Below the pieces are notes generated by a model. It had not been told where the DNA came from. It saw nothing but the letters and a program-made list of their open reading frames with translations, and did not search any database. The position numbers were made by a program, and so were the translations under genes. Shown here one piece after another: positions 8,078 to 64,000 of a stretch of DNA of 64,000 bases. The stretch comes from an uncultured Candidatus Saccharibacteria bacterium (GTDB lineage: Bacteria; Patescibacteriota; Minisyncoccia; Phycocordibacterales; Phycocordibacteraceae): assembly GCA_964469405.1 (NCBI GenBank), contig CAYXYP010000002.1, positions 9,338 through 73,337 on the forward strand, written 5' to 3'. The stretch's first letter is position 1, and each line of letters starts with the position of its first letter.

Positions 8078-8284
8078 TTATGCAGCAACGTAGGGAAGAA
8101 GTGCCATGTAACGTGCGTGCTTGATAGCTTGCGCGATGTCGCGCTGCTTCCCTGCCGGAATGCCGGTGCGCTTTTTTGCAAGAATTTTCGCATGCGGGCT
8201 CGTGAACAACTTAAGATAAGCTACATCCTTGTAGTCAATAAATTTCTTGATTTCGATCTCTTCACGCTCTGATTGATAGGCCAT
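8078..8284 (-). CDS. rpsR: 30S ribosomal protein S18
   Basis: 68-aa S18 pattern FIDYKD...KRTGIPAGKQRDIAQAIKHARYMALLPY. Confidence 0.9.
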   Translation of the reverse strand: MAYQSEREEIEIKKFIDYKDVAYLKLFTSPHAKILAKKRTGIPAGKQRDIAQAIKHARYMALLPYVAA

Positions 8285-8293
8285 AAAAATAAT

Positions 8294-8746
8294 TTAAAAA
8301 GGAATATCTTCCGGATTAATTTCTTCATCCGGGTACTTAATTTCGTCCGCACCCTTTGGCGCAGGTTGCTCCTCATGGGTACCGCCTTGTGTACCAGCAG
8401 ACGAACCGCCCTTACTGCCATCGGCGCCGAACTGGAACGTATCTACAATGATTTCGGTACGATAATTTTTCTTTCCATTTTCTTTATCGTCCCACGACCG
8501 TGTCTGGAGGCGACCTTCAATAAAGACCGGTCGACCTTTCTTGCAATACTGTGCGATGACTTCTGCCGTACGTCCGAATGCGACGACATTATGAAACTCT
8601 GTTGTCTCCTGCTTGGCTCCGTTTTTGTCCTTGAAGGTACGGTTCGTTGCAAGGCCAAAATTCGCAACCTGGCTTCCAGACGGGAGCGCCTTTAGCTCCG
8701 GGTCACGAGTGAGATTGCCATAGAGAAGTACTTTGTTGAGATACAT
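8294..8746 (-). CDS. ssb: Single-stranded DNA-binding protein
   Basis: OB-fold SSB sequence; Gly-rich linker and acidic C-terminal tip ending DIPF. Confidence 0.9.
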   Translation of the reverse strand: MYLNKVLLYGNLTRDPELKALPSGSQVANFGLATNRTFKDKNGAKQETTEFHNVVAFGRTAEVIAQYCKKGRPVFIEGRLQTRSWDDKENGKKNYRTEIIVDTFQFGADGSKGGSSAGTQGGTHEEQPAPKGADEIKYPDEEINPEDIPF

Positions 8747-10116: not shown

Positions 10117-11546
10117 AGTCGAGGAAAGAGATTTGTAGGTTTTTTATTAGACCGTACTGCTTCGATAATGAGGGTCGCGGTGTGCGGCATTGCAGGAGCG
10201 AGATGCATGGCGATACTCGCAAGCTGTCGCACTAGATACTCGATATCGTGACGGGCAGAAACCTGTTCCTCTACGATGAGGCTCTTGATTTTCTTATATG
10301 GCATACGCTCTGTCATGAAGACATCAGCGGCTGAGACTTTCGCAAAGACAAAATCCATTGCTTCGTTGAAATGAAACGTCTCGACAGTATCGAAAAATGA
10401 TTTCTCTATCTTTTCATCACCGTCTTCAAGAACGACCGGCTGCGACAGATGTGTTTCGGCAAGTGTCATCACGCGCGCGACGAGATTCCCCAGACCATTG
10501 GTAAGATGGGCGGTATAGTGTTCATGAATCACTTCGAGTGTAAGGTCCGAATCCTCCCTATGACTCGCGTGGCGCATAAGAACATATCGGAGGGCATCGA
10601 CGCCATATATTTTGACGAGATCCAGGGGATTGATGACATTCCCCAATGATTTGCTCATCTTCTGCCCCCCTGAAGTAATGAACCCGTGTATGAAAATATT
10701 TCGCGAGAATGGAAGGCCTGCCGAGAGAAGCATTGCCTGCCACATAGCTGCCTGCTGGCGCAAATTATCCTTCCCCGCCAACTGTGTCACCGGCCACCAT
10801 TTCAAAAAACGCTGGTTATCCTGCGGCCAGCCAATCGCCGATACATAATTTACAAGCGCATCAAACCAGACATACATAACGTGTTCCGAATCATCGGGAA
10901 CAGGCACCCCCCATGCGAGTTTTTCCCGTCGGCGCGAAATGCTGAAGTCCTTCAATCCTGCCGCAACGAAGGACATGAGTTCGTGCATACGTTCTTCCGG
11001 AATGACAAAGTCCTGCTGTGCCGCATACTGAGCGAGCAATACATCCTGATATTTGGAGAATCTGAAGTAGTAATTTTCTTCTTCGCGAATCTCTATATCC
11101 ACATTAGGATGAAGCGGGCAGCGTCCATCGACAAGCTCCGAGTCGGTCTTCGGAAGCTCGCAACCAACACAATATTTCACTTCATAGATTGCCTTGTAGA
11201 TATCATCCGCCTCGACACATTTCTTCCAGAACATTTGTGCAGCGGCAACATGTAAAGGGTCAGTAGTACGAACAAATGAATCGTAAGAAATATCTAGTTG
11301 GTCAGCGAACGTCTTGAAACGCGCAGCATACTCATCGACATATGCTTGGGGACTCTTCCCTTCTTCCTCTGCCTTCCGTTCAATTTTTGCACCATGTTCA
11401 TCGGTACCAATATTGAGAAAAACTTCGACACCTCTTGCACGTAGAGTGCGCGCAAGAACATCGGCCTCGACAAATTCGAGTGCGTGTCCAAGATGCGGAT
11501 CCGCATTCACATAGGGCAGCGTCGTGGTGAGATAGCGCGCACTCAT
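10113..11546 (-). CDS. metG: Methionyl-tRNA synthetase (short form)
   Basis: HLGH-type motif PHLGHALE, KMSKS motif, and MetRS-like sequence throughout. Confidence 0.9.
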   Translation of the reverse strand: MSARYLTTTLPYVNADPHLGHALEFVEADVLARTLRARGVEVFLNIGTDEHGAKIERKAEEEGKSPQAYVDEYAARFKTFADQLDISYDSFVRTTDPLHVAAAQMFWKKCVEADDIYKAIYEVKYCVGCELPKTDSELVDGRCPLHPNVDIEIREEENYYFRFSKYQDVLLAQYAAQQDFVIPEERMHELMSFVAAGLKDFSISRRREKLAWGVPVPDDSEHVMYVWFDALVNYVSAIGWPQDNQRFLKWWPVTQLAGKDNLRQQAAMWQAMLLSAGLPFSRNIFIHGFITSGGQKMSKSLGNVINPLDLVKIYGVDALRYVLMRHASHREDSDLTLEVIHEHYTAHLTNGLGNLVARVMTLAETHLSQPVVLEDGDEKIEKSFFDTVETFHFNEAMDFVFAKVSAADVFMTERMPYKKIKSLIVEEQVSARHDIEYLVRQLASIAMHLAPAMPHTATLIIEAVRSNKKPTNLFPRL

Positions 11547-14054: not shown

Positions 14055-15953
14055 TTATTGCACAATTGCGTTTGCAGCGACATACCCCGGATCTCCTTTC
14101 GTTTCGGTTGTCGCTGGATCTGCCGTCGCGGTGACCGTCACACCCGCGAAGCGATCATAGCCCGAGAAAGATACCGCCCCCGTAAGAGCTGGTACGCTAC
14201 CCTTCTGCGAAGAAGAAGGAGTAAGAGAAACTTGAAACGCACCCTGCACTGAAGATCCTTGAGCAAGATCGCCCGTATTCCACGAGACGGTGTGCGATGA
14301 CGTATCGTACGAGAAAGATCCGGCACCAGAAGTCGCTCCCGTATAGGCGACGTAGCCCGGCAAGGTCGCACTAGCGGAACCACCAGCAACCGCACTTCCT
14401 TTATTTTGCAGGTTCCAGACAATGGTGTAAGTCGTCGGTGTGTTAGCGCGTGGAGGAACAGGACCACTGGTACTCAAAGATCCCGAACTATGAAGCGATG
14501 AGGCACCTAGCGCAACTGTCGTTGCGACTTTTGCAGTCTTGGTTACAGAAGAACTTATCTGTTCTGGTACATTCGTCTGTCCCACGCGCGTACCCGATAC
14601 GGAAATCGTGAACATTATTGTCGGAGCAGAAACGAAAGTACTGAGTGGCAATGTCGAAAAAGTGAACGCTCCGATACCAGAAGCACCAGGTGCCAGCATC
14701 GCGAGAACCGAATCACTATCCCTGCTAAACACAATCGTGTGGTCAGCAGACCGATAGAACCCACTCTGGGCACGAATGCTTTCGTAATCAACAGCCGTGC
14801 CCGAAATTGCGATTTCAACTGTCGCGTTTGTAATACTCGTAGAAAGAGTATTGGCATAAGAAATCGTGACGTTCTGATTGCTTCCGGGAGAAACAACTGC
14901 ATTTTCTCTTGTGTCACCATTGATTGCGATACTCGTATTGATAAAGGGCGCCGTAATCGCAATCGTCGATTCTTGAGTCATATAGGAGACGGCGAGCGTA
15001 TGGTCTTTCGCAGACTTCGCAGTCCCAATAGTGAAGTGGAAGACTCGTTGTTCTTTGTCCTGTCCCACAAGCGTGCCGGTAAGCGTTATCGTCTTCTGTG
15101 CGCCAGGCAACATAGTGCCGATAAAGAAACTTGAGTTACTGAGAGGGATCGATGATGAAACTACCGAAAACCCGAAAGGGAACGCCCCCGTAAGGACCAC
15201 GTCCGGAAGTGGTGTTGTTGCATTCGAACGAAGCAGGAGAGTAAGCGTGATTGGTTTGCCTGACACAGTTTCGGCGAGAGTATCAACCGAGAGCGAGAGC
15301 GGGGTTGAAGAGATCGTAAGTCCATAGGAAGATTTTTTCACGAAGACAGCATTTGAACCAAGCGTACTGTAGGAAAGAGATGTAGGTAGGGCGAGACTCT
15401 GCCCCTCCCGACCGAACATAATCGCTTTCACTGAGCGAGTCACTGTCGCACCACTCGCGAGCGTACCAAGATTCTCGACATACCGCGGATACGCACTCAA
15501 GACATCAGTCGCGTTCCTTGTACCATTCGGAAAATCAATCTCGATGGTCGCATTTTCTATCGCAACCGAGTTCTTATTTGTAATAGTGAGCAAGAGTGGG
15601 ACCGTATCGCCGCCAGCGATTGTTGTTGGGCCCTGGATATCGGTGATAATTTTATCTACCGACACTGAATTGCCCCCAAAATAGAAGAAGTAGGCAACGC
15701 CACCAAGTGAAACGAGGAAGAAAAGGAGTGCGACTATAAAAAATATTCCCGCGAAATGTACTTGCTGTCGACCACGATGCGGAAGAGGAGTGTCTGGAAG
15801 TGGAACTTCTTCCCAAGCATGAGGCAGAGACCTCGTATCAGAGTCGGCCAGTGGCGCTCGCATATTTTGCACGGGGGCACCGGGAACGTAGAGGCGTGCG
15901 CGTGCACGCTCAAGCGAGCCAGTATCATCATCTTCGGGGCGAGGTAGCATCAC
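14055..15953 (-). CDS. Large membrane-anchored extracellular Ser/Thr-rich repeat protein
   Basis: 632 aa with a single N-terminal TM helix, then repetitive beta-rich Ser/Thr-rich modules. Confidence 0.7.
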   Translation of the reverse strand: MMLPRPEDDDTGSLERARARLYVPGAPVQNMRAPLADSDTRSLPHAWEEVPLPDTPLPHRGRQQVHFAGIFFIVALLFFLVSLGGVAYFFYFGGNSVSVDKIITDIQGPTTIAGGDTVPLLLTITNKNSVAIENATIEIDFPNGTRNATDVLSAYPRYVENLGTLASGATVTRSVKAIMFGREGQSLALPTSLSYSTLGSNAVFVKKSSYGLTISSTPLSLSVDTLAETVSGKPITLTLLLRSNATTPLPDVVLTGAFPFGFSVVSSSIPLSNSSFFIGTMLPGAQKTITLTGTLVGQDKEQRVFHFTIGTAKSAKDHTLAVSYMTQESTIAITAPFINTSIAINGDTRENAVVSPGSNQNVTISYANTLSTSITNATVEIAISGTAVDYESIRAQSGFYRSADHTIVFSRDSDSVLAMLAPGASGIGAFTFSTLPLSTFVSAPTIMFTISVSGTRVGQTNVPEQISSSVTKTAKVATTVALGASSLHSSGSLSTSGPVPPRANTPTTYTIVWNLQNKGSAVAGGSASATLPGYVAYTGATSGAGSFSYDTSSHTVSWNTGDLAQGSSVQGAFQVSLTPSSSQKGSVPALTGAVSFSGYDRFAGVTVTATADPATTETKGDPGYVAANAIVQ

Positions 15954-30287: not shown

Positions 30288-31094
30288 TTACCGAATCTCG
30301 TACGTAATCGAGACCGATGCGTTATACGTATTCTCACCAACTGGTAAATTCGGTGCTGGCTCCGCCTTTGCATCCGCCCGAGACATACCAAGACCGTACA
30401 TCGGGGACGCATACCCACCTGACGACTCACTGAAATTCACAATCTTCCCGAGATGGACGCCGAGCTGCTTCGCGAGAAGCTTCGCCTGTACTTTCGCTTT
30501 ATCGATTGCGTCAGCTCGAGCAGCGTCGTAACCGGCAGTTGCGTCATCGAGCGCAAACGCGGGGCCGTTTATGTTCTGGACCTCGAGCTTACCAAGCCCA
30601 CCAAGGAGCGTACCTACAGCAGAGAGATCACGCATAGTCACCTGTATTGTTTCAGACACTTGGTAGCCGGTTATTTTAGGTGTGCCACTATAATAATCTG
30701 GACAGACCCCTCCTCGCGGACAAGGATTCGGATATGAGTACTGTGGTGAAATATTGTATGAGAGCGTCTTTACATCCTTTTCATCAACATTCTGCCCTTT
30801 TACATATTCAATTGCGGCATTTGCTTGTTTCGTGGTCACCGCTTGTGCATCGGCAACAGTTGCGGCGATATTTTCAACAGTGAAAGAAATGCGCGCGACG
30901 TCCGGTGGGAGCGTTGCTTGACCAGAACCCTGAACCGTAACCGTATCAGTCGCGGGGACGTCTGGACGACCGAAATTCCCAGCGATGGTTATAGTTTGTG
31001 CGAGCAAAAAAAGCGCAAGAATGCCGAGAGCTCCGATAAGCGCGATGCGTACGCTGCCATTATCGAAAATCTCATAGAGAGGATTGTTGTTCAT
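30288..31094 (-). CDS. SIMPL/DUF541-family periplasmic protein
   Basis: TM anchor then VTVQGSGQATLPPDVARISFTVE... SIMPL-like segment. The ORF track extends it to 31241; the internal MNNNP start is more likely. Confidence 0.7.
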   Translation of the reverse strand: MNNNPLYEIFDNGSVRIALIGALGILALFLLAQTITIAGNFGRPDVPATDTVTVQGSGQATLPPDVARISFTVENIAATVADAQAVTTKQANAAIEYVKGQNVDEKDVKTLSYNISPQYSYPNPCPRGGVCPDYYSGTPKITGYQVSETIQVTMRDLSAVGTLLGGLGKLEVQNINGPAFALDDATAGYDAARADAIDKAKVQAKLLAKQLGVHLGKIVNFSESSGGYASPMYGLGMSRADAKAEPAPNLPVGENTYNASVSITYEIR

Positions 31095-31173
31095 GTCGGA
31101 AAACGAATTATGAATTAATACCGACAGTATAGCATCGAGCTCGTTACCAAACGAGCAGACTCCGGGAGCAAAT

Positions 31174-31821
31174 TTATCCTCCTTGTAGAGTCGTGAGAAG
31201 CTTCCGGAGCGCTGAATGAGCTCGAAGCGTTGAGGTATCAAGGTTCGGATTGGTCCAGTTCATGACTTCTGTATCTAACGCATCGAAACGCAACACGTCG
31301 TTTGCTCGAGCAAGATAATAGGCAGTATCGATAACACCCTCAAACCGTTCTATAGAAACGACCGTGAAGCGATGCGTGCCAAGCACCGTAGAAGAATAGG
31401 CAGTCGCACCAACCGGCTGTCCGGAAGCTCCACCAATGGCTGTTTTTTGAATAGTCATCAGTGCGGTTGAAGATGCGCTAATTTCATGGCGACGGATGAT
31501 GATGCTGGAACGTTTCGTCGACGAAGCTTCGGTAGGCAGTTCATAGGCAGCAATGCTCGCAGCATCGGGGAGCTCGGCTACAACAAAATCCATCGGTATG
31601 GCGAATGCGATGCCGATATCTGATAGTGAAATATTTGGAAGCGGACATTCGGCGAAGACGCAAGAAGGCCCAGTACGCGCGATCGAAGTACCATCAGGAC
31701 ACTGCAGAGCATCAAGAGGGCACGTAATCGGCTTTGTCGGATGTTCAACTGCATTTCGATACACGAATCCGCCAATCCCAATAATGACGATGGCCAAAAG
31801 ACCAAGAAATAAACTCTTCAT
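31174..31821 (-). CDS. Hypothetical secreted Cys-containing protein
   Basis: Signal-anchor MKSLFLGLLAIVIIGIGGFV from the internal Met at 31821. The longer ORF beyond that would overlap tRNA-His. Confidence 0.5.
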   Translation of the reverse strand: MKSLFLGLLAIVIIGIGGFVYRNAVEHPTKPITCPLDALQCPDGTSIARTGPSCVFAECPLPNISLSDIGIAFAIPMDFVVAELPDAASIAAYELPTEASSTKRSSIIIRRHEISASSTALMTIQKTAIGGASGQPVGATAYSSTVLGTHRFTVVSIERFEGVIDTAYYLARANDVLRFDALDTEVMNWTNPNLDTSTLRAHSALRKLLTTLQGG

Positions 31822-31842
31822 TCGCGCATGGTACCACGCAAC

Positions 31843-31918
31843 TGGGGCGACTATCGGGAATCGAACCCGAATTGAGAGCTCCACAAGCTCCAGTGTTAAC
31901 CGTTACACCATAGTCGCC
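31843..31918 (-). tRNA. tRNA-His (anticodon GTG), with G-1 and encoded CCA
   Basis: Manual fold: G-1 pairs with C73, acceptor GCGACTA/TAGTCGC, D-stem GTGT/ACAC, anticodon loop TTGTGGA, T-arm TCGGG-TTCGATT-CCCGA. Confidence 0.9.
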
Positions 31919-31987
31919 ATGTTCATACCTAATCTGTCGATAGGCTCGATATTTTTATAACACGAAAACGGAAAGTGCGCGAAGAAA

Positions 31988-32592
31988 TTAATATCGAGGA
32001 TTTTCCTCTGCGACACCCTTAATATGATTTGCGAGACGTGCAAATGCAAAGAGCAACGACGAAAGACGATTTATGTATGCCATAGTTTCTTTTGTAGGAG
32101 AACATGCTTGCGCTTCTACCGCAGCGATAAGCCTCCTCTCGGTGCGGCGCGCGATGGTCCGCGCGACGTCGAGGAGCGCGGAGAGTTCAGTTCCCCCAGC
32201 AATGGAAAACCCTTTAATCGGGGGATCTCATTTTCTATATTGTTTACCAATTCCTCGACCTCTCGCACAGCAGACTTCCCCACTTTCTTATCTGCGCCAG
32301 CGACCTCCGCTTGAACGATAAAAAGTGTTTCTTGTACGGCACGTAGTCCGCCCTGAATACGCGACTCTCCGACGCTGCGCATTTTCACAAACCCAAGAAA
32401 TGCATTCAGCTCATCAAGCGCACCAAGTGCTTCCGGCACGAGTGATGATTTAGAGATCCGCTGCTGATTGCAGCCGAACGTCTTCGTTGTGCCATCGTCT
32501 CCTTTACCAGTAAAAAGCATATGCGGTGATCGTGCGCTTAGTATACCTTTCCAAGAATGTAAAAACAGAACGGGACGTGTCTTATCAGACAC
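31988..32592 (-). pseudogene. ATP:cob(I)alamin adenosyltransferase, PduO type, interrupted by a 1-nt frameshift near 32205
   Basis: Frame 1 (32592-32116) reads MLFTGKGDDGTTKTFGCNQQRISKSSLVPEALGALDELNAF...IPRLKGF. The C-terminal part continues in another frame to the stop at 31988 as FSIAGGTELSALLDVARTIARRTERRLIAAV...YINRLSSLLFAFARLANH. The shift is at the homopolymer-rich stretch AAAGGGTTTT. Confidence 0.6.
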
Positions 32593-32613
32593 GTCCCGTT
32601 TACGGCTATTGCT

Positions 32614-33507
32614 CTACGCTTGTTCAAGAACAGTTTTGCGAGCTTTTTCTATTTTATCATCAGGAGTTCGCTTAAGGTCTGTGGCCAATCCAAGCTTTGA
32701 CAGTCCAAGAATTATCCACTTGGACGGGTCGAAATTGTACCAAAGTAGACCATTTCGAAAATCTCTCGGGAAGGCATGGTGGTAATTGTGATACCCTTCG
32801 CCGAAAGTAACGAGGGATACAATCCAGCTATCCTGCGACGAATTCGCTCGGGTATATGGTTGACTGCTTCCCCAATGTCTCATGTGGGCAAGGCTATTGA
32901 TGAAGAACGTTGCATGCCACACGAGAATGGATGCGGAAACTCGAGAAATGAAACCTCCAAGAGGATCACCCCAGAGAGACGCAATAAGGACCGGCATGAT
33001 TCCCCAAAAAAAGATGATCAGCAGGTAGTAATTCTTGTGCTGAAAATTCACGAGCTGTGCGGTCCATGAATCCTCAGTGAGATGATCTGCTGCGCTGAAA
33101 TCTCCCTTTTTCCTGTCGGGATCCTTGAAAAGAATCCAACCGATATGTGAGTGCCAAAATCCTCGTGCCGCATTGTAAGGATCCTCGTCTTTGTCGGTTT
33201 TCTGATGGTGAATAACATGGCCAGAAACCCATACCTTGATGGTATTTTCAATAGCGGTTGTTCCGCAGATCGCGAGAATCGTCTGCACTACTTTCCCGCA
33301 TTTGAAAGAACGGTGGGTGAAAAAACGATGGTATCCGACCGTAATTCCAAGTCCACTTATGAAGAACCAGACTACGCCTGAAGCGATAGTCTGCCACTTC
33401 CAGTGACCGAGAGCTAGGGTATAGAAGCCGTAAAACGCGATAACGTGAACTACGCCCATGAAGATGGCGTTCTGCAAATACAGTTTTCCCTTCTTTGGTG
33501 CCATCAT
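32614..33507 (-). CDS. Membrane fatty-acid desaturase (Delta9 acyl-CoA/acyl-lipid desaturase family)
   Basis: Three His boxes HRFFTHRSF, HVIHHQKTD and HNYHHAFP, plus four TM segments. Confidence 0.85.
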   Translation of the reverse strand: MMAPKKGKLYLQNAIFMGVVHVIAFYGFYTLALGHWKWQTIASGVVWFFISGLGITVGYHRFFTHRSFKCGKVVQTILAICGTTAIENTIKVWVSGHVIHHQKTDKDEDPYNAARGFWHSHIGWILFKDPDRKKGDFSAADHLTEDSWTAQLVNFQHKNYYLLIIFFWGIMPVLIASLWGDPLGGFISRVSASILVWHATFFINSLAHMRHWGSSQPYTRANSSQDSWIVSLVTFGEGYHNYHHAFPRDFRNGLLWYNFDPSKWIILGLSKLGLATDLKRTPDDKIEKARKTVLEQA

Positions 33508-33602
33508 TCATTCACCTCCTTCCCCTAATAACAGATTGTTCAATGTGCTCTATCCTCCCCCAAGATAACAGATTGTCAGAAATTCGAAACGAGTTCCCTA
33601 AT

Positions 33603-33695
33603 GGTGCGCCGCTTTGGACAGAATTAGAACTTTATACAACACTCGCGATTCCGAACTCCTCAGGACATTAGCTATTATTCGGGATTTGGAAAGGA
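33603..33695. repeat. Repeat R copy 1: conserved block covering the last 7 codons plus 72 nt of 3' UTR of small paralog 1
   Basis: About 97% identical to 34873-34965 and about 85% to 36001-36095. Confidence 0.8.
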
Positions 33696-33923
33696 GGCAT
33701 CATGGTCGTCGCAAGAATCTGCCAAAGGCGGCGTAGGACGGCCGCTATGTTCGCCGGGTAGCGGACTATAGATAATCAGGTAGAGATTGATGAGGCGGCT
33801 TGCCATTTCCCGAGCCTCTTCCTCCTCAATGATCTTGCCGCACTCTTTTGCGTATATGACTCTAAATTCTTCGATTGATTCTTTTGGTGGATACATCTCT
33901 GGAGCATACGCAGGCACTCCCAA
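33675..33923 (-). CDS. Small conserved protein, paralog 1 of 3 (82 aa)
   Basis: IEEFRVIYAKECGKIIEEEEAREMASRLINLYLIIYSPLPGEH...SFPNPE; paralogs at 34945-35166 and 36072-36293. Confidence 0.6.
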   Translation of the reverse strand: MGVPAYAPEMYPPKESIEEFRVIYAKECGKIIEEEEAREMASRLINLYLIIYSPLPGEHSGRPTPPLADSCDDHDASFPNPE

Positions 33924-33934
33924 AAGGGCAGGAA

Positions 33935-34699
33935 TTACTTCTCAGAGTCTCTGTCTATTCGCTGTGTGCGGCTTCGTGTCAGGGTTTCCTTTCTCATCTC
34001 AAATAGGAGCTCCTTCATAACTTCAGGTTTAACCCGTATGTATGGAACTCCGTTGATAACTTCTTCTTCAATGTACGCCGGTAAGGACTGACGCCGATAC
34101 ACCGCAGGATCGTTCATATCCACACGAATAGTTTCTATTGGTTGATGAAAGAGTCTATTAACTACACAACCTGTAATTTCAGTATTGGTCGAGCTACCTT
34201 CCAATCGTAAGACCCACACACGCCTAAATGGGCCTGGGGAAAGGAGACTCTCTTTCAACTGCTCGACCCACGTCGGGCTTTGCGCGTTATTCAAGTAGAT
34301 AAGGAGATCGTAGTTTGTAGTTGAATAATGGTTTTCAAGTTTCCCTTTAATGATCACTCTTGCCTCCTCAATGCTCGTGCACCGCGGCGGCACCTCAACC
34401 AGTTCTATTTGTGCAAAACCAATACCGGGTGGATTTCCATCAAATACCAGGAGGCTGAAGTCAGGAAATTGATCCTTAACGGGCAACAAGAACCAATCTA
34501 AACCCGTGACCTTCTTCATTGCGACCATAAAGTACATAAGAGCAAAGCTCTCCCTATCTTTCTTTACATTCTCATCGGTGCTCGAGAAAAACTTCTTGGA
34601 ACCAATGCGCTTGAGTGTCGTTTCCATCTTTCTCAGCACCGCAATCCAATCTGAAAGAAGCAAAGAGTTGCTAGAAATGAAGCTTGGTTCCTGGGACAT
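33935..34699 (-). CDS. Hypothetical protein (254 aa), variable partner gene upstream of small paralog 1
   Basis: Ends 12 nt before the paralog-1 start; no recognisable domain. Confidence 0.5.
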   Translation of the reverse strand: MSQEPSFISSNSLLLSDWIAVLRKMETTLKRIGSKKFFSSTDENVKKDRESFALMYFMVAMKKVTGLDWFLLPVKDQFPDFSLLVFDGNPPGIGFAQIELVEVPPRCTSIEEARVIIKGKLENHYSTTNYDLLIYLNNAQSPTWVEQLKESLLSPGPFRRVWVLRLEGSSTNTEITGCVVNRLFHQPIETIRVDMNDPAVYRRQSLPAYIEEEVINGVPYIRVKPEVMKELLFEMRKETLTRSRTQRIDRDSEK

Positions 34700-34750
34700 T
34701 CATACATTGAAGCGAATGTCTGTCGCTTTGACTAGGCGGGGAACGACACA

Positions 34751-34872
34751 GAAAGGTTCGAATCCTGGACAGTGTCAACTGAACGAAACAAAAAATACCG
34801 ACAGTCGCGTAAAAAAGCCCTGAATTACAGGGCTTTTTAACGGCGTGATATTTTGCCTGCGAGACAAGAACT
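34751..34872. repeat. Repeat U copy 1: about 124-nt unit with a tRNA T-arm-like GGTTCGAATCC motif (34755-34765) and a bidirectional hairpin terminator (34811-34838)
   Basis: AAAAAAGCCCTGAATTACAGGGCTTTTT; copies at 35877-36000 and 36341-36465. Confidence 0.8.
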
Positions 34873-34965
34873 GGTGCGCCACTTTGGACAGAATTAGAAC
34901 TTTATACAACACTCGCGATTCCGAACTCCTCAGGACATTAGCTATTATTCGGGACTTGGAGAGGA
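34873..34965. repeat. Repeat R copy 2
   Basis: See R copy 1. Confidence 0.8.
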
Positions 34966-35166
34966 AGCTTGGAGCTCTCCAAGATGATCTTCCGAAGGCG
35001 GCATAGGGTGCTTAGGGATCTCGCCGGGTAGCGGACAGTAGATGATGAAGTAGAGCTCTATCAGACGATCGGTCATCTCAATTGCATCCCTCTCCGATAA
35101 GTACTTCCCGAATTCTTCCTGGTACAACTTCCGGAATTCATCAATGCTGGTTTTGTGTGTATGCAT
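34945..35166 (-). CDS. Small conserved protein, paralog 2 of 3 (73 aa)
   Basis: SIDEFRKLYQEEFGKYLSERDAIEMTDRLIELYFIIYCPLPGE...SSPSPE. Confidence 0.6.
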   Translation of the reverse strand: MHTHKTSIDEFRKLYQEEFGKYLSERDAIEMTDRLIELYFIIYCPLPGEIPKHPMPPSEDHLGELQASSPSPE

Positions 35167-35263
35167 GAGTACGGTCTACCCATGTCTCAGAAATCTTCAA
35201 GGGTTGCCACAAACAAAAAGAGCCAGGTTGTGTAACCTGACTCTTTTGATATAACGTTTACAA

Positions 35264-35587
35264 CTACCGAGCACAGAACTTCCCAGCTGGTTGGTTTTCA
35301 TAAATGGAATAGACTCGTCGTTGGCCATAGATGACCTTTTCGCCTGGTTGGAGATCTTTGCAGACACGTGTGCGACGCAGGAGTTTTCCGTTGCCGTCAT
35401 AATCGTGCCTCACCCACCAAGAGCCACCTGAACACCTGATCTGTCCATCAGTTTTCAAGATGAGCATTCGGCGACCCCAAAGCGGATAGAAATCGTAGCT
35501 ATGGGGCTCATTCTCGTTTCCACTACCCATCTCCCATCCCACAAGATGATCGAGACGAGCAAACACTCTTTGGAGCAAGGTTGTCAT
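35264..35587 (-). CDS. Hypothetical protein (107 aa), variable partner gene upstream of small paralog 2
   Basis: Trp/Gly-rich; no recognisable domain. Confidence 0.4.
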   Translation of the reverse strand: MTTLLQRVFARLDHLVGWEMGSGNENEPHSYDFYPLWGRRMLILKTDGQIRCSGGSWWVRHDYDGNGKLLRRTRVCKDLQPGEKVIYGQRRVYSIYENQPAGKFCAR

Positions 35588-35876
35588 GAACCCTCCTATC
35601 TTTCAATTGGGACAGTTTGAACAATCGTTTTCACACTTTCATGACCTGGTCGATGGGTGAGGATTAGAATTGTGCCGCGTTCCTCTCCTTGGAAATATTC
35701 GACAGTCTCTCCTCGCTTCTGTACTCGAGCCACCCTACCTCCGCCCGCTTTCTTTTCCATGCCATTTCCTTTCTGTGATCCATCAAAGAGCTGTTATGAA
35801 TTGTCTTCGCTGCTGTGGGAAAGTAAAGCACCCATGGTCGAGACTGTCACGAGAGGTGTTTCGGCAGGGTGCGAGA

Positions 35877-36000
35877 AAAAGGTTCGAATCCTATACAGAG
35901 TCGACAGGACAGATTTAGAAAGGCCGGCAATGCAACAAAAAAGCCCTTAGTTACAGGGCTTTTTTGTGTAGTGATATTTTGCCTACGAGGCAACGTGCGG
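35877..36000. repeat. Repeat U copy 2 (T-arm-like motif at 35881-35891; hairpin at 35937-35965)
   Basis: See U copy 1. Confidence 0.8.
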
Positions 36001-36095
36001 GTGCACCGCTTTGGACAGAATCAGAACTTTGTATAACGCTCGCGATCCTGAACTGCTCCACACACTCGCCATTATTCGGGATTTGGAAAGGAAGC
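36001..36095. repeat. Repeat R copy 3 (the most diverged copy)
   Basis: See R copy 1. Confidence 0.7.
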
Positions 36096-36293
36096 ATCAT
36101 ACTCGTCGCAAGAATCTGCCAAAGGCGGCGTAGTGACGTCGTTATGTTCACCGGGCAACGGGCGATACAAAATCTGGTAGAGACCGATCAAGCGTGCTAC
36201 CATCTCGATCGCATCTTCTTCAGATAGGTACTTCCCACACTCCTCCTGGTACAGCTTTCGAAATTCATCAATGCTATTTGTGTGTATGGGCAT
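36072..36293 (-). CDS. Small conserved protein, paralog 3 of 3 (73 aa)
   Basis: SIDEFRKLYQEECGKYLSEEDAIEMVARLIGLYQILYRPLPGEH...SFPNPE. Confidence 0.6.
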   Translation of the reverse strand: MPIHTNSIDEFRKLYQEECGKYLSEEDAIEMVARLIGLYQILYRPLPGEHNDVTTPPLADSCDEYDASFPNPE

Positions 36294-36340
36294 ACCTACT
36301 CTCTACCCGTATATCAAAACTCTTCAAGTTTCTGGCTTCA

Positions 36341-36465
36341 GAAAGGTTCGAGTCCTACACAGAGTCAGCAGAACAGATTTAAAAAAGCTCGTGAAGCAGC
36401 AAAAAAGCCCTGAATTACAGGGCTTTTTTACGGTGTGAAATTTTGCCTGCGAGGCAATGTGCGAG
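36341..36465. repeat. Repeat U copy 3, directly abutting the tRNA-Leu(GAG) 3' end (T-arm-like motif at 36345-36355; hairpin at 36401-36429)
   Basis: See U copy 1. Confidence 0.8.
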
Positions 36466-36549
36466 TGCCCAGGAGAGGACTCGAACCTCCAAGCCCTTTC
36501 GGGCGCTACCACCTCAAGGTAGTACGTCTACCAATTTCGCCACCTGGGC
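36466..36549 (-). tRNA. tRNA-Leu (anticodon GAG), type II with long variable arm; no encoded CCA
   Basis: Manual fold: acceptor GCCCAGG/CCTGGGC, anticodon loop TTGAGGT, variable arm CGCCCGAAAGGGCTT, T-arm GGAGG-TTCGAGT-CCTCT. Confidence 0.9.
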
Positions 36550-36572
36550 AACGGAAACACTATAAACGAAAA

Positions 36573-36605
36573 ACCGCCGATCGCAAAGCGATCGGCGGTT
36601 TTTCC
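36573..36605. terminator. Bidirectional hairpin terminator downstream of rplS
   Basis: ACCGCCGATCGC-AAA-GCGATCGGCGGT flanked by an A-run and a T-run. Confidence 0.7.
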
Positions 36606-36614
36606 TCTTAAAAT

Positions 36615-37067
36615 CTAAGCTGCAACTTCTTCCTTCGCTTCCTCTGCAGGAACGACCGCTTCATCACTCTTCATGTTCATCATGCGTGCGTTGCGCAGCT
36701 GGCGGCGGACCGCTTTGGTTGCCTTCTCACGGATGAAGTAGAGTTTGGCGCGACGGACCTTGGAACGCTTTACAATCTCGATCGAATCAATTGAAGGGGT
36801 ATAGAGTGGAAAAGTCTTCTCAACACCGACACCCGAGAGCGTCGCACGGACAGTAAACATTGCCCCGGCTTCCGTACCGTGCTTGGTCGAGAGGACAAGA
36901 CCTTCGAAAGTCTGTTTACGAACGTTTTTTGTGGTCTTCTCTTTTTTGTCGGTGCCACGACCTTTCTTGAGTTCAACAATATTCTGCACGACGCGCACAG
37001 TATCACCCGAGCGAATGCCGAGCTTCGCGCGTCCTTCTACGTTCACCGGAGTTATAACTTTCTGCAT
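36615..37067 (-). CDS. rplS: 50S ribosomal protein L19 with C-terminal extension
   Basis: L19 core (GDTVRVVQNIVE...RKQTFEGLVLS). Confidence 0.9.
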   Translation of the reverse strand: MQKVITPVNVEGRAKLGIRSGDTVRVVQNIVELKKGRGTDKKEKTTKNVRKQTFEGLVLSTKHGTEAGAMFTVRATLSGVGVEKTFPLYTPSIDSIEIVKRSKVRRAKLYFIREKATKAVRRQLRNARMMNMKSDEAVVPAEEAKEEVAA

Positions 37068-37110
37068 GTGTCGAGCACTCTAGCACGCGTTGTAAGAGAG
37101 AGCAAACTCA

Positions 37111-37821
37111 CTACCCTAGCGAGGAGAGTGTCGCGCTCATACCGGGAAAATGGGCAAATGCGGGTGCAAGATCGTCCGGTATGGGCGCAACAATGCGGAC
37201 GCGGCCACCCGAAGGAAGCGGAATATTCAGCACATACGCATGAAGACCGAGGCGCTTTATACCGAGTGCGGCGGGATGATTCGGAGCATACAAAGGATCA
37301 CCGACAATCGGGTGATGGATTGCTTTCAAATGCACGCGAATCTGATGAGTTCTACCAGTCTCAGGAGTCATCCGCAGAAGTGCATACTCGCCAGTCTCAG
37401 CGAGAACCTCGTAGTGTGTAAGAGCGTCGCGCAAGAGTCCTTTAGCTTTTGGTTGTGCACTTCGAAGACGGAAATCACTGCGCGAACGACCGATATCGAA
37501 ATCAATAGTTCCCTGCTTCTTTTTAGGCGCTCCATACACGAAAGCCAGATACTCCTTCTTCACTTCCCTGTCATGAAATGCTTTCCTTAAGAACTCATAG
37601 GCTACTGCATGTTTCGCAAAGACGAGTACTCCCGAAGTATCACGATCAAGTCGATGTACGTACCCAGAAGAGGGCGGCGTAGTAGTTTCTATTTTATATT
37701 TTGATGTAAACCAATCCTCGGCTGTTTCTTCCTGTGTCCTCCCATCCGAGTGCGTTATAAGCCCTGCGGGCTTCGCAATCGCAACAATGTCGGCATCTTC
37801 ATAGAGAATAGAGAGTTCCAT
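37111..37821 (-). CDS. RluA-family pseudouridine synthase
   Basis: HRLDRDTSGVL catalytic-Asp motif. Confidence 0.85.
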   Translation of the reverse strand: MELSILYEDADIVAIAKPAGLITHSDGRTQEETAEDWFTSKYKIETTTPPSSGYVHRLDRDTSGVLVFAKHAVAYEFLRKAFHDREVKKEYLAFVYGAPKKKQGTIDFDIGRSRSDFRLRSAQPKAKGLLRDALTHYEVLAETGEYALLRMTPETGRTHQIRVHLKAIHHPIVGDPLYAPNHPAALGIKRLGLHAYVLNIPLPSGGRVRIVAPIPDDLAPAFAHFPGMSATLSSLG

Positions 37822-58684: not shown

Positions 58685-60844
58685 ATGACTTCCAAGCGGC
58701 GCTTTCCATGGCGGCACTCTCTTCTTGCGTCTATTCTGGCACTTTTGGGTCTCGGGTTCTTTATAGGAGGCGGGGTTCTTCTTGCTGTTGTTGCAACCCC
58801 AGCGCCCGATATTGATTCCTTTTCCTCACGGCAGATTGACCAGTCAACAAAAATATATGATCGTACTGGGCAAATACTTCTCTACGACTACAACCGGGAC
58901 GCCAAACGCAATGTCGTCCCCCTCACCGCAATATCGCCCAACACAATAAACGCAACAATAGCGATTGAAGATTCAAGTTTTTATGCACATGGGGGCATCC
59001 GCCTTACTTCAATAATTCGAGCCACATTCGTCAACGCTGTCGGTGGTGCGATCTCGCAGGGTGGCTCAACCATCACGCAACAAGTTATTAAAAACGAGCT
59101 CCTCACAAACAGAAAAAGTGTTACTCGAAAAATTAAAGAGTGGGTACTTGCGATAAAGCTGGAACAAGTCTACTCAAAAGATCAGATTCTCGAGACATAT
59201 CTTAATACCATTCCCTATGGCGGTACCCTCTATGGTATTGAAGCCGCTTCTGAGGCTTACTTTGGGAAACCCGCAAAGGACCTCTCGCTAGCACAAGCGG
59301 CATACCTTGCGGCTATGATTCAGGCGCCTTCCTATTATTCGCCGTATGGCGCCCATCAAACTGAACTTACAGCCCGTAAAAATCTTGTCCTTGATCGAAT
59401 GTTTGAACTTGGTTTTATAAATAGCTCTGCGCACACATCTGCACAAGCTGAAAAAATTTCTTTCTCCCCTGCGGGCCAGAATGCGGTCATAGCGCCTCAT
59501 TTTGTTTTTTATATCCTCAACCAACTCGAAGAGACTTATGGTTCCAGAGCTCTTACGGCGGGACTAAAAGTCACCACGACACTGGACGCTGAACTTGAGG
59601 TAGAAGCTGAGTCCATCGTTAATCAGTATGCACTCGAGAATGTGAAGAAATTTAAAGCAACAAACGCATCTCTTGTTGCTATAGACCCCCCGACAGGACA
59701 AATTCTTGCTATGGTTGGTTCCCGAAATTTTTTTGATAAAGAAATTGATGGACAATATAACGCCACACTTGCTTCTCGCCAGCCTGGCTCAACAATGAAG
59801 CCTTTTATTTACTCACTTGCCCTTAAGGCTGGCTACACGCGCGACACTATTGTCTTTGATGTTCCGACTCAATTCTCAACGGTATGCAAACCATCGGAAA
59901 CAACAAATAACACCGCACCTTGTTACGCTCCTGTTAACTTTGACGGGGCTTTCCGTGGCCCTATGACCTTTGAAACAGCCCTTGCCCAATCAATCAACAT
60001 CCCAGCTATTAAAACCCTTTATCTTGTTGGGATACAGAACGCGGTAAATCTCGCCAAATCATTTGGCCTTACTACTCTTGGCGACCCAAATCAATATGGC
60101 CTTACGCTTGTGCTTGGTGGAGGTGAAGTACGCCTTCTTGATCTTACTGGCGCATATGCCGCTTTTGCGAATGAGGGAACATTAAATACCCCGACAGGAA
60201 TACTCGAGGTTGATGATGCTGCAGGAAACGTACTCCAACAATTTTCTGCACAATCCTCAATAGTACTCCCAACACTTATTGCACGAGATGTTTCTGCAAT
60301 GCTCTCTGACGCCCGTGCCCGCCTCCCGGAGTATCCACTCAACTCCCCTCTCTCTTTCTCGGGATATGATGTGGCAGTGAAGACAGGAACAACAAATGAT
60401 ACTAAAGATGCATGGATCGTCGGCTATACCCCCTCTATCGCGATTGGTGTATGGACAGGAAACAACGATAACTCCCCTATGGTTAAGTCTGTTGCTGGTT
60501 TTATTGCGGCACCAATGTGGCATGAAGTAATGGCATATGCTCTCTCAAAATACCCAAAAACTTATTTTGGTGAACCGAGCGCTATACTTTCTTCTGTTCC
60601 CCCTATGTTGCAGGGGAACTGGAGTGTCCGTGACATGCAGGGAAATATATTTCCTCATAGTTTATTGTATTGGACTGATAAACATAACCCTCAAGGCCCA
60701 CCTCCTCTTAATCCTTCAGAAGATCCTCAATTCGAATACTGGGAATATGGGGTTTCCGCATGGTATACCGCTCACCCTGATCTTTTTTTAGGTGGAGTGA
60801 TGACTCCTGTACCTCTATCAAATAACGCAACTACAACTTTTTAA
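58685..60844 (+). CDS. Class A penicillin-binding protein (glycosyltransferase plus transpeptidase)
   Basis: GT51 motifs EDSSFYAHGG and GGSTITQQ; transpeptidase STMKPF (SxxK). Confidence 0.9.
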   Translation: MTSKRRFPWRHSLLASILALLGLGFFIGGGVLLAVVATPAPDIDSFSSRQIDQSTKIYDRTGQILLYDYNRDAKRNVVPLTAISPNTINATIAIEDSSFYAHGGIRLTSIIRATFVNAVGGAISQGGSTITQQVIKNELLTNRKSVTRKIKEWVLAIKLEQVYSKDQILETYLNTIPYGGTLYGIEAASEAYFGKPAKDLSLAQAAYLAAMIQAPSYYSPYGAHQTELTARKNLVLDRMFELGFINSSAHTSAQAEKISFSPAGQNAVIAPHFVFYILNQLEETYGSRALTAGLKVTTTLDAELEVEAESIVNQYALENVKKFKATNASLVAIDPPTGQILAMVGSRNFFDKEIDGQYNATLASRQPGSTMKPFIYSLALKAGYTRDTIVFDVPTQFSTVCKPSETTNNTAPCYAPVNFDGAFRGPMTFETALAQSINIPAIKTLYLVGIQNAVNLAKSFGLTTLGDPNQYGLTLVLGGGEVRLLDLTGAYAAFANEGTLNTPTGILEVDDAAGNVLQQFSAQSSIVLPTLIARDVSAMLSDARARLPEYPLNSPLSFSGYDVAVKTGTTNDTKDAWIVGYTPSIAIGVWTGNNDNSPMVKSVAGFIAAPMWHEVMAYALSKYPKTYFGEPSAILSSVPPMLQGNWSVRDMQGNIFPHSLLYWTDKHNPQGPPPLNPSEDPQFEYWEYGVSAWYTAHPDLFLGGVMTPVPLSNNATTTF

Positions 60845-60871
60845 TAAGAAGGATGTGAATTTAAATTACTA

Positions 60872-61972
60872 TTATTGATTCATTGGAGAAACGAGATACA
60901 GGAGTGAGGTATCATTCATTCCTTTTATAATAAGTGGGCGCCCAACTCCAGCCGCAAGAAGTGAGACACTTTCTGATGTGGTGAGAGATAACACTGCTGA
61001 AAGATATCGATGATTAAAAGACAATTCAAGAGCACTTCCTGATATGTTGGCTGGGATTGTCTCTAATGATTCTCCAATATCTGCATTTCGCGCAAAGAAA
61101 GAAAATACATTCTTTTTAGGATCAAAACTAATACGTACTTTCTGAAATAAATCAGAAAAAATAGTTGTTCTCTTGAGTGCATTTTCGAAATCTTTTCGCA
61201 ATATAATTGCTTCAACAATTGATTCTTTTGGTATAATTTGCCTATAATCTGGGTACACAGCATTTGTTAGGCGTGATACCAACATACCCTTATCACTTAC
61301 AAAGGCACATTGATGCTCATCAAATGACATAATAATATCATTATCTGGTAACGCTTGTGCTATATCAAGAGCATTTTTTGCTGGAATAAGAAACTTTCCT
61401 TGAAGTCCTTTATTAATTAAAGGTACTTTTTTCTCAGCAAGTCTGAATGAATCAGTAGCAACAGCGGTTAATATCCCCCCTTCAATAGATATATAAATAC
61501 TGGATAATTCAGGACGGACCGTAGATGTTGATGCGCATGATGCAATAGAGGTAAAAAGTGAACGTAAAAGTATTCCAGGAATTACTATTCTATTTTTTGG
61601 ATTTTCTGGAAATGGAATCGACGGGAAATCATCATAAGGAATGGTTTTTATAGAGCTTTTACTTGTACCACTTGTAATTGAAATAACCTCCCCAATATGC
61701 TCGATTATTATCTTCCCTTCTTGAGTGAATAAGCTTGCTATTTGCTGAAGTATTATCGCAGGAATTGCGACAACGCCTTTTGTAGTGCATTCACCTTCAA
61801 GTTTTAAATCTATACCTGTCTCAAGATTTGTTGCACGCATTTTTATACCCTCATCTCCCGCAATAATAAGTATTGAAGACAGTGCAGGAAGTGTTGCGCT
61901 TTTCTTTTGAGCAAACCGAGACACGATATGCACAGCCTCAGAGAATTTATTTTTTTCTATTAAAATATTCAT
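60872..61972 (-). CDS. dnaN: DNA polymerase III beta sliding clamp
   Basis: 366 aa; three-domain clamp profile; immediately downstream of dnaA. Confidence 0.9.
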   Translation of the reverse strand: MNILIEKNKFSEAVHIVSRFAQKKSATLPALSSILIIAGDEGIKMRATNLETGIDLKLEGECTTKGVVAIPAIILQQIASLFTQEGKIIIEHIGEVISITSGTSKSSIKTIPYDDFPSIPFPENPKNRIVIPGILLRSLFTSIASCASTSTVRPELSSIYISIEGGILTAVATDSFRLAEKKVPLINKGLQGKFLIPAKNALDIAQALPDNDIIMSFDEHQCAFVSDKGMLVSRLTNAVYPDYRQIIPKESIVEAIILRKDFENALKRTTIFSDLFQKVRISFDPKKNVFSFFARNADIGESLETIPANISGSALELSFNHRYLSAVLSLTTSESVSLLAAGVGRPLIIKGMNDTSLLYLVSPMNQ

Positions 61973-62072
61973 ACAATTCTTATTAAGGGTGTTGATAAGT
62001 GGATAACATAAAAATATAAGGAGATTGTTGGATATTTACACACGACTGTTTTATATAATATGTTGATAAGGT
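61973..62072. promoter_or_regulatory. Candidate oriC segment: AT-rich dnaA-dnaN spacer with DnaA-box-like 9-mers
   Basis: TGTTGATAA (61991-61999), AGTGGATAA (62000-62008) and TGTTGATAA (62061-62069), compared with the TGTGGATAA consensus; AT-rich run TTTTATATAATAT. Confidence 0.55.
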
Positions 62073-63428: not shown

Positions 63429-63527
63429 AGTGTTCTGAAAGTATACGCTTTTTATTCATTCAAGATATGTTGGCGTTTCGGGGAGAACCTGTTAGTATCG
63501 TGTGCATAACCTAATTTTCCGTTCACT

Positions 63528-63665
63528 ATGTCCAAACGAACCTATCAACCGAAAAAACGTAAGCGCGCTACGACGCACGGGTTTCTTGCGCGGACAAAAA
63601 CGAGTTCTGGGCGTAAGATAGTGAAAAAACGCCGTCGTATCGGTCGCGCACGACTCGCAGTCTAA
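63528..63665 (+). CDS. rpmH: 50S ribosomal protein L34
   Basis: My translation gives [45 protein letters not shown] (45 aa; below the ORF-track length cutoff). Confidence 0.85.
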
Positions 63666-63671
63666 TTATTT

Positions 63672-63983
63672 GTGTTCTCACGTCGAGAACGTCTTTCTCG
63701 TGCGGCATTCCCTACGGCCCTCTCTACTGGTCGGCGGTTCTCATCGACAAACTTCAGTGTCGTTTTACCAAAAGAATCACGAGGATATGCGGTTGTAGTG
63801 TCAAAAAAAGTCGCTCGCCTCTCGGTCACGAGGCATTTAATTAAGCGGCGAGTGCTTGAGGCCCTTCGAACGCTCCCTCTTCCCTCCTCCATTATTGTTT
63901 TCCCAAAAACAGCGGCTAGCCGGATGTCCTACCAGGACGTCAAAGTGGAGCTCGCAACCCTTCTTTCTAAAATTAGCCGATAG
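63672..63983 (+). CDS. rnpA: RNase P protein component
   Basis: 103-aa basic protein immediately after rpmH, following the conserved rpmH-rnpA order. Confidence 0.8.
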   Translation: MFSRRERLSRAAFPTALSTGRRFSSTNFSVVLPKESRGYAVVVSKKVARLSVTRHLIKRRVLEALRTLPLPSSIIVFPKTAASRMSYQDVKVELATLLSKISR

Positions 63984-64000
63984 AGTAGAATAAATGCATG

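Follow-up and report, generated by a model that had tools for sequence, protein, structure and literature searches.

The region between two tRNA genes at positions 31,843 to 36,549 of a 64,000-nt stretch of DNA from an uncultured Candidatus Saccharibacteria bacterium (assembly GCA_964469405.1, contig CAYXYP010000002.1; the whole stretch is called the window below) appears to consist of two parts of different origin. The part next to tRNA-His holds resident genes for a PduO-type adenosyltransferase and a fatty-acid desaturase. The part next to tRNA-Leu(GAG) is best read as a tandem accretion of three non-autonomous modules of large serine recombinase (LSR) type, a reading to which we give a probability of roughly 0.7. 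The modules would be the remains of LSR integrative elements, or miniature derivatives of them. An initial annotation had described the entire 4.6 kb between the tRNAs as non-core cargo of one acquired island, and the comparison with relatives contradicts this for PduO and the desaturase.

An insertion at the 3′ end of tRNA-Leu(GAG)

The tRNA-Leu(GAG) gene (36465-36549; Rfam 49.6 bits) and the tRNA-His(GTG) gene (31843-31917; 60.7 bits) were both found by ARAGORN and Rfam on the minus strand, as the initial annotation had claimed, and all genes between them lie on that strand as well. Starting from tRNA-His, the PduO-type gene is followed by the desaturase gene and then by open reading frames (ORFs) without a family match. 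Related loci were taken from 80 species-level genomes, labelled Kaiserbacteria, Paceibacterota or Patescibacteria, that were found via the L19 gene adjoining tRNA-Leu. The proteins and tRNAs of the window were mapped onto these 80 loci, and synteny counts refer to the 55 species having both tRNAs. Identical contigs were matched by L19 in Hainich groundwater metagenomes. The conserved gene order is L19, tRNA-Leu(GAG), a variable slot, PduO, tRNA-His, p236, SIMPL, SecE and NusG.

Empty sites in this slot delimit the insertion. One relative (L009) reads GGGCAC·AGATAGTAATTTATTCCGCATTTTCGACAATCTGTTATCC across the tRNA-Leu 3′ end (dots mark junctions or crossover points here and below), which is the sequence following the last module in the window. 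A second relative (L007) likewise has tRNA-Leu directly before the window's downstream sequence. Written in the window's own sequence, the empty-site junction would be tRNA-Leu ...GGGCAC joined to CATTAGGGAACTCG. Because the sequence after the array is the post-tRNA sequence of these relatives, the insertion is exactly 33604-36464. It lies between the tRNA-Leu 3′ end and a native trailer (33508-33603, minus strand) that separates it from the desaturase and is homologous to the sequence directly after tRNA-Leu in relatives with an empty site (compared with L009, L007 and L013). The array-native junction between 33604 and 33603 reads GCAC·CATTAGGG..., and the sequence after the distal module is CATTAGGGAACTCGTTTCGAATTTCTGACAATCTGTTATC... 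Searched with tblastn (E ≤ 1e-5), none of the 80 related loci matched the small proteins or orphan ORFs of the array.

The gap after tRNA-Leu spans 4 to 6965 nt across the 55 species. In other species the slot holds Dcm methylases, insertion sequence (IS) transposases, P-type ATPases, DnaA paralogues or a reverse transcriptase, and it is a general insertion hot spot. In L013 (11305-11540), tRNA-Leu(GAG) is followed by an insert of about 220 nt whose two flanks repeat the tRNA 3′ end directly over 16 nt (CTCCTCTCCTGGGCAC), a scar left at this tRNA by integration of another, classical kind.

Three modules of common design

The insertion is made up of three head-to-tail modules. Read along the minus strand from the tRNA (...GGGCAC·), each begins with a 127-nt left end, termed D2, that holds a terminator hairpin formed by an A-run and a T-run. 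Optional cargo follows, then a small gene termed sm, and finally a 75-nt tail ending ...GTCCAAAGCGGYGCAC·. The tRNA-proximal module c (36001-36464, 464 nt) is without cargo and consists of D2c (36342-36464, hairpin 36400-36432), sm and a recombinase remnant. Module b (34874-36000, 1127 nt) carries the orphan ORFs o54 (35596-35760) and o107 (35264-35587) between D2b (35878-36000, hairpin 35937-35966) and smB with its remnant. The distal module a (33604-34873, 1270 nt), presumably the oldest of the three, carries o254 (33935-34699) between D2a (34752-34873, hairpin 34808-34838) and smA with its remnant. All of these modules and cargo ORFs are on the minus strand. The array of repeats and small ORFs had been recognized in the initial annotation, and its two repeats, of 273 and 127 nt, occur in three copies each that are 69-82% identical and spaced by 1270 and 1127 nt. 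The cargo ORFs belong to no family: o54 and o107 have no match in Pfam, NCBIfam, PHROG or PADLOC, and o254 is an orphan with a single distant homologue in 5.8 billion proteins.

The same unit is found in a different organism. There (L089/L086), a single D2-sm-tail unit stands directly after tRNA-Leu(TAG) and is collinear with module c, with identities of 79% in D2, 67% in the spacer, 70% in sm and 82% in the tail. Homology between the two ends at the GCAC borders (..GCACC), and the pairing of the hairpin is kept through two-sided change. Since the L089 locus has one D2 and a native trailer after its tail, D2 belongs to the module as its left end. Length and hairpin are the same in all D2 copies, which is easier to explain by one miniature ancestor in common than by three separate deletions. 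At tRNA-Leu(GAG), L087 and L008/L092 each have a single module with other cargo.

Each left end also starts with a 6-bp palindrome, TTGCCT-CGC-AGGCAA (36440-36455, 35977-35991 and 34850-34864). On the plus strand, the left ends contain a T-loop-like GGTTCGA(A/G)TCC about 100 nt from the crossover, and a similar motif occurs at a similar distance in L008, L087 and L089. A decayed tRNA fragment or an attachment-site (att) duplication of the tRNA was considered as the source of the GGTTCGAATCC motif.

The tails are recombinase 3′ ends

On the plus strand, the tail together with the end of sm forms a 40-codon ORF, LDRIRTLYNTRDSELLRTLAIIRDLE...KAA*, that was missed by the initial annotation. A six-frame profile search identified this peptide as the C-terminus of a 531-aa protein in another locus (L088). 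The L088 protein carries Resolvase, Recombinase and Zn_ribbon_recom domains and is thus a large serine recombinase. Remnant c (36011-36133), the last 40 codons of the LSR (LDRIRTLYNARDPELL...KAA*), starts 7 nt past the GTGC core at 36001-36004 and matches the L088 recombinase in tblastn with 79% identity (E 9e-13) and the asp HMM at 2.8e-26. Remnant b (34884-35006) likewise comprises 40 codons of the LSR 3′ end, and remnant a (33614-33736) is a further LSR 3′ remnant; all three are on the plus strand. The interpretation of the tail as a decayed tRNA fragment or as an att duplication of the tRNA was dropped, the tail being LSR coding sequence.

Conservation of the tail exceeds that of the sm coding sequence. 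The tail is 98.7% identical between copies a and b, and 90% identical to the copy in the relative L008, where sm is degraded. Read directly, the substitutions between copies are mostly synonymous in the 40-codon plus-strand frame. Rfam (E ≤ 1, positions 31000-37500) returned the two tRNAs and sub-threshold noise only, so the conserved 75-nt tail is not a known RNA. A pattern scan of metagenome contigs for the tail recovered seven further loci, and the same pattern had no match in viral contigs. The LSR family itself is large, with 7515 database proteins at E < 1e-30, including alphaproteobacterial members. Intact genes with all three domains are present in L088, L095 and the series P0006-P0125.

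Attachment sites and split recombinase genes

Several members of the family end inside a tRNA gene. The recombinase P0013 (locus L093) agrees with the family consensus as far as ...ADRQGLC; from there it reads PDQESNL..., its ORF running antisense into tRNA-Arg(TCG), beginning with the GTGC of the tRNA 3′ end. P0077 (L095) reads into tRNA-Leu(GAG), and the adjoining L19, RluD and UppS genes place it at the chromosomal locus of the window. Its element exceeds 8 kb and includes STAND NTPase, HicAB and helix-turn-helix genes. Six more family members, judged by eye from the protein, have a C-terminal peptide signature that reads as tRNA antisense. In L020, a distant LSR and tRNA-Leu(GAG) have about 20 nt in common, and a truncated LSR lies next to IS elements at the same place in L029.

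The att sites were compared by aligning all junctions on the crossover. Two of the five intact genes, L088 and L094, are the clearest and show an attP of the form GTC(C/A)-N6-GTG·C(A/G)C-N6-GGAC; the remaining three (L096, L097 and L098) deviate in the central triplets or in an arm. For the P0006 or the L088 recombinase, the putative attP is about 60 bp around GTCCTATGCTGTGCACTGCTTTGGAC. Beside the array, the 3′ end of tRNA-Leu reads GTCC TCTCCTGG GCAC. Its half-site is GTG·CCC-N6-GGAC-TC-GAAC, with a 2-nt spacer, and the half-site of the remnants is GTG·C(A/G)C-N6-GGAC-AGAATTA-GAAC, with a 7-nt spacer. The inner motif is therefore equidistant from the centre in both sites, and the outer motif is 5 bp nearer to it in the tRNA site. 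Serine integrases are described as having an attB whose outer motif is nearer to the centre by 5 bp than that of attP (PMC3783163). This match marks the tail as a putative attP half-site within coding sequence and the tRNA-Leu 3′ end as the corresponding attB half-site, an assignment made from motif spacing. The sharing of sequence between the two borders is short: no direct repeat of the tRNA 3′ ends, which the initial annotation had proposed to look for, is found at the far border, and only the GCAC core, within a similar GTCC-N8-GCAC half-site, is common to both.

Two loci with LSR genes show further features. In L094 (1-21596), the intact recombinase and sm are accompanied by type IIG restriction-modification genes, a second serine recombinase, a TrwB-like ATPase, RadC, ArdC, E2/ThiF genes, a caspase-like peptidase and a TIR protein; this element looks conjugative or defence-rich. 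L096 has, in addition to an intact recombinase, a second, solo 3′ fragment of a recombinase gene and a further sm gene (8155-8307 and 10386-10622), with a UvrD helicase gene between them. Stacking similar to that of the array may take place inside other elements.

The partner gene sm

The three sm genes lie on the minus strand and converge on the recombinase remnants. smC (36072-36293) encodes 73 aa with a predicted two-helix fold, smB (34945-35166) also encodes 73 aa, and smA (33675-33923) is 82 aa long as an ORF. The linkage to the recombinase is not confined to the array. In three of the five intact loci (L094, L097 and L098, the last a Parvibaculum-type, alphaproteobacterial-type locus), a complete sm ORF runs convergently to the LSR gene and overlaps its 3′ end, and L096 has a partial sm match at its LSR 3′ end. 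A profile search retrieved 1005 cluster representatives, nearly all of 50-100 aa. No Pfam, NCBIfam, PHROGs or PADLOC entry matches sm. AlphaFold models the protein as a hairpin of two helices with a disordered tail (pLDDT 75), for which Foldseek returned nothing from the PDB at E ≤ 0.001. From its position one might guess at a directionality factor or a regulator.

Over a 43-codon core, the nonsynonymous distance (dN) between copies is 0.12-0.37 and synonymous sites (dS) are saturated. The three sm copies of the window have therefore not been duplicated recently; they are old and evolve under purifying selection. smC differs from the L089 copy by a dN of 0.12 and from smA by one of 0.37.

Resident genes and surroundings

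PduO is located between tRNA-Leu(GAG) and tRNA-His in 47 of the 55 species. The desaturase occupies the same position in eight, all among those whose L19 is most similar to that of the window, and the two tRNAs are adjacent (43-83 nt apart) in four. It follows that PduO and the desaturase are long-standing lineage genes rather than cargo of the insertion, and that tRNA-His is only the next conserved gene. The island border set there by the initial annotation moves to 33604, and what stands of the proposed 4.6-kb island is the tRNA-Leu-proximal 2.86 kb, a genuine insertion. Conservation of gene content across the lineage, named at the outset as evidence against an island, is thus seen for the PduO/desaturase half and not for the array half.

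Composition gives no clear sign of an island. By tetranucleotide distance, PduO and the desaturase rank at the 2nd percentile and form the most genome-like 1.7 kb of the window; the array ranks at the 90th percentile, with a GC content of 0.470 vs 0.484 for the window. The sole strong tetranucleotide outlier is the stretch with dnaN and dnaA (60872-63428), which is also the lowest in GC (0.35-0.39; dip at 59000-64000) and is probably the replication origin region, not foreign DNA.

The PduO-type gene (31988-32520, minus strand) matches PF01923 with 71.8 bits over profile positions 2-117 of 171. Its domain is not contained in one intact frame: as the initial annotation had noticed, there is a frameshift, here a -1 shift at a C5 run (32220-32224), beyond which the remainder can be read in another frame. 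C6 in place of C5 would restore the frame and give the canonical ...IKGFSIAGGTELSALLDVARTIARRTERR... continuation. Two independent assemblies of this population (L001 and L002, from wells H41 and H51) share the C5 run, and the shift is probably real or programmed rather than an assembly error. Differences of 100 nt and 10 nt between L001 and the window are only apparent and correspond to runs of N. The desaturase (32614-33507, minus strand) was correctly called; it has a PF00487 domain (62.7 bits) and three His boxes (HRFFTH, HVIHH and HNYHH), and is resident in the closest clade. Upstream of it (33515-33602, minus strand), the motif ACAATCTGTTAT occurs twice, and a block CAATCTG(C/T)TATCCTG...GCAC(A/C)TTGAA(C/T)AATCTC is kept in relatives. 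This block could be an operator or leader for the desaturase. A promoter scan stayed below shuffle expectation.

The surroundings are housekeeping genes as described initially, including FtsK, aminoacyl-tRNA synthetases, PolA, PBP1, DnaN, DnaA, L19, NusG and SecE. Among them is a 632-aa ORF (14055-15953, minus strand) without a Pfam domain. In several relatives (L039, L041 and L047), 3-6 kb are inserted between tRNA-His and the p236 gene; tRNA-His is a second hot spot of the lineage, unoccupied in the window.

Assembly of the array and alternative explanations

The proposed route to the array starts from the recombinase family. Its members carry a putative attP, the palindrome GTCC-N6-GTG·CAC-N6-GGAC, in their own reading frame, about 41 codons before the stop, and the 3′ end of a tRNA gene would serve as attB. 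Integration would then split the recombinase gene. The long N-terminal part would come to lie beside the tRNA and read into it, and the last 40 codons, with the convergent sm, would be carried to the far end of the element. The modules in the window keep only this far end (sm and the 40-codon remnant) and a 127-nt near end with the hairpin, two of them with orphan cargo in between. They would stack by successive insertion next to the tRNA, the newest module being nearest to it, and would rely on an LSR supplied in trans. By analogy with the accretion of integrative elements that are conjugative (ICEs) or mobilizable (IMEs) and with staphylococcal cassette chromosome (SCC) elements, such stacking would be one plausible path (PMC5357655). 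The suggestion in the initial annotation of a remnant, or of mobilization in trans, pointed in the right direction; the enzyme concerned is a large serine recombinase and not the tyrosine integrase usual for tRNA-flanked islands. It was also right that no complete integrase gene is present in the 64-kb window, and no tyrosine integrase domain was detected among the ORFs of the region with Pfam, NCBIfam or PHROG.

A number of observations weigh against this reading. The window's only traces of an LSR gene are the three 40-codon fragments, which leaves mobilization in trans without direct support. Intact family genes are also found on very large contigs, including a 3.9-Mb genome (P0078), and not every integrated copy is split. 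The 127-nt left ends are unlike the P arm of intact LSR genes and do not fit the att rule. D2 as an LSR coding stretch just upstream of the crossover found no support in an HMM test, its conceptual translation scoring no better than shuffles against the LSR C-terminal profile. The composition of the array is mildly atypical at most. A population variant (L091) differs only in sm c, over a stretch that starts at 36058 on a contig that ends at 36304; this boundary, away from the att core, suggests homologous rather than site-specific exchange. Finally, canonical serine integrases recombine attP with attB only and not with an occupied site, and stacking beside an occupied site needs relaxed specificity or another route.

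Of the other explanations, a single acquired island spanning the whole 4.6 kb, with PduO, desaturase and array as its cargo, is scarcely credible. It would suit the tRNAs on both flanks, the PduO pseudogene and the direct tRNA-Leu/tRNA-His neighbourhood in four related species, but it is at odds with the retention of PduO in place in most species and of the desaturase in the eight closest, with the genome-like composition of these two genes and with the border at 33604. The array alone might instead have arisen in place, by tandem duplication and unequal crossing-over of a resident sm and its flanks, with later divergence, new ORFs and no mobile element. Long direct repeats could drive such crossing-over, the near-identity of tails a and b suggests gene conversion, and L091 documents an exchange of homologous type. 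This origin is nevertheless quite improbable: every repeat has an LSR 3′ end that stops exactly at the crossover position of the family, another organism has the same unit beside a different tRNA-Leu, the site is empty in close relatives, and smC is nearer to the L089 copy than to smA.

A history closer to that of accretion has three full-length LSR elements arriving in succession, each losing its recombinase and most of its genes in place without ever having been a mobile miniature. Full-length elements do occupy this site in L095, L020 and L029, and the one in L029 is visibly decaying, with its truncated LSR and IS elements. We consider this possible although unlikely, as the three modules and the L089 module share the 127-nt left end, the hairpin and the inner end point, which independent deletions would not give; the shared left end points to a common miniature ancestor that spread. 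It could also be asked whether sm and the 40-aa plus-strand ORF are kept as a functional convergent pair, toxin-antitoxin-like or regulatory, that benefits the host and has only a historical link to recombination. The 40-codon frame is open in every copy with the same stop, and sm is under purifying selection. The ORF, however, is without a Shine-Dalgarno sequence and without hydrophobic, toxin-like character, copy a can start only at a TTG right after a stop, descent from distinct functional LSR genes accounts for the synonymous-looking variation, and L008 keeps the remnant while its sm is degraded. Such a pair is very improbable. Beyond the accretion of LSR-type modules itself, self-splitting might act as a switch, in which the truncated enzyme and sm control excision and the modules are passengers moved in trans and piled up at tRNA-Leu. 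This extension is speculative and, in our estimation, rather unlikely. If true, it would amount to a serine-recombinase counterpart of an integron cassette array. The array itself is not of integron type: there is no IntI, and the repeats are LSR gene ends and a terminator hairpin, not attC.

Comparison with known systems

The analysis corrects the genome map: 2.9 kb instead of 4.6 kb are accessory, and PduO and the desaturase count as genes of the lineage, with a recent break in one of the two. Serine integrases whose landing sites in tRNA genes are natural and conserved are of practical interest for genome engineering and are also relevant to mobile DNA in Patescibacteria, with their small genomes. 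A literature search returned no description of this LSR family, of its miniature derivatives or of serine-recombinase elements in Patescibacteria.

The array resembles SCCmec and pseudo-SCC elements at the 3′ end of rlmH (orfX) in staphylococci, and the Enterococcus cassette chromosome, in the insertion by an LSR at the 3′ end of a conserved gene. Tandem stacking, short att-derived repeats between elements and the presence of some elements without recombinase genes are further common traits of SCC-type islands. In contrast to these, the array targets a tRNA gene, its recombinase family has the att site within the ORF, and the modules are far smaller (0.46-1.27 kb). The L088 recombinase is related to CcrA/B/C only distantly and is not of Ccr type, scoring 87, 41 and 32 bits where the NCBIfam cut-offs stand at 900, 700 and 900.

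SSV1-type integrases of archaeal viruses have attP inside the integrase gene, a tRNA gene as target and an ORF that is partitioned to the two ends of the provirus. They are archaeal tyrosine recombinases, whereas the family described here consists of bacterial serine recombinases and loses no more than its last ~40 codons in the split. Like the array, classical tRNA-flanked islands with P4-like or lambda-like tyrosine integrases are inserted at a tRNA 3′ end and vary in accessory content among relatives. Unlike them, the array lacks a tyrosine integrase, and its borders share a 4-nt core instead of a direct repeat covering 15 nt or more of the tRNA 3′ end.

Streptococcal cis-mobilizable elements (CIMEs) are decayed or non-autonomous elements that keep their att sites and stand in tandem at one site, as in the array (Coluzzi 2017, PMC5357655). 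CIMEs and the tandem accretion of ICEs and IMEs in streptococci are also the subject of Pavlovic 2004, as cited in PMC5357655. A streptococcal IME with a serine integrase and a recombination site within the integrase gene has also been described (PMC5357655). Accretion in streptococci has nonetheless been documented chiefly for tyrosine integrases acting at rpsI, rpmG, rplL or tRNA genes, and the serine-integrase elements enter protein genes (snf2, maff2, traG) rather than tRNA genes, with no sm-like partner described (PMC5357655). The literature searched has separate precedents for the single features; the traits of the LSR family, namely its many members, tRNA 3′ targeting via an attP in its own coding sequence and the unannotated partner sm, have rarely been documented together.

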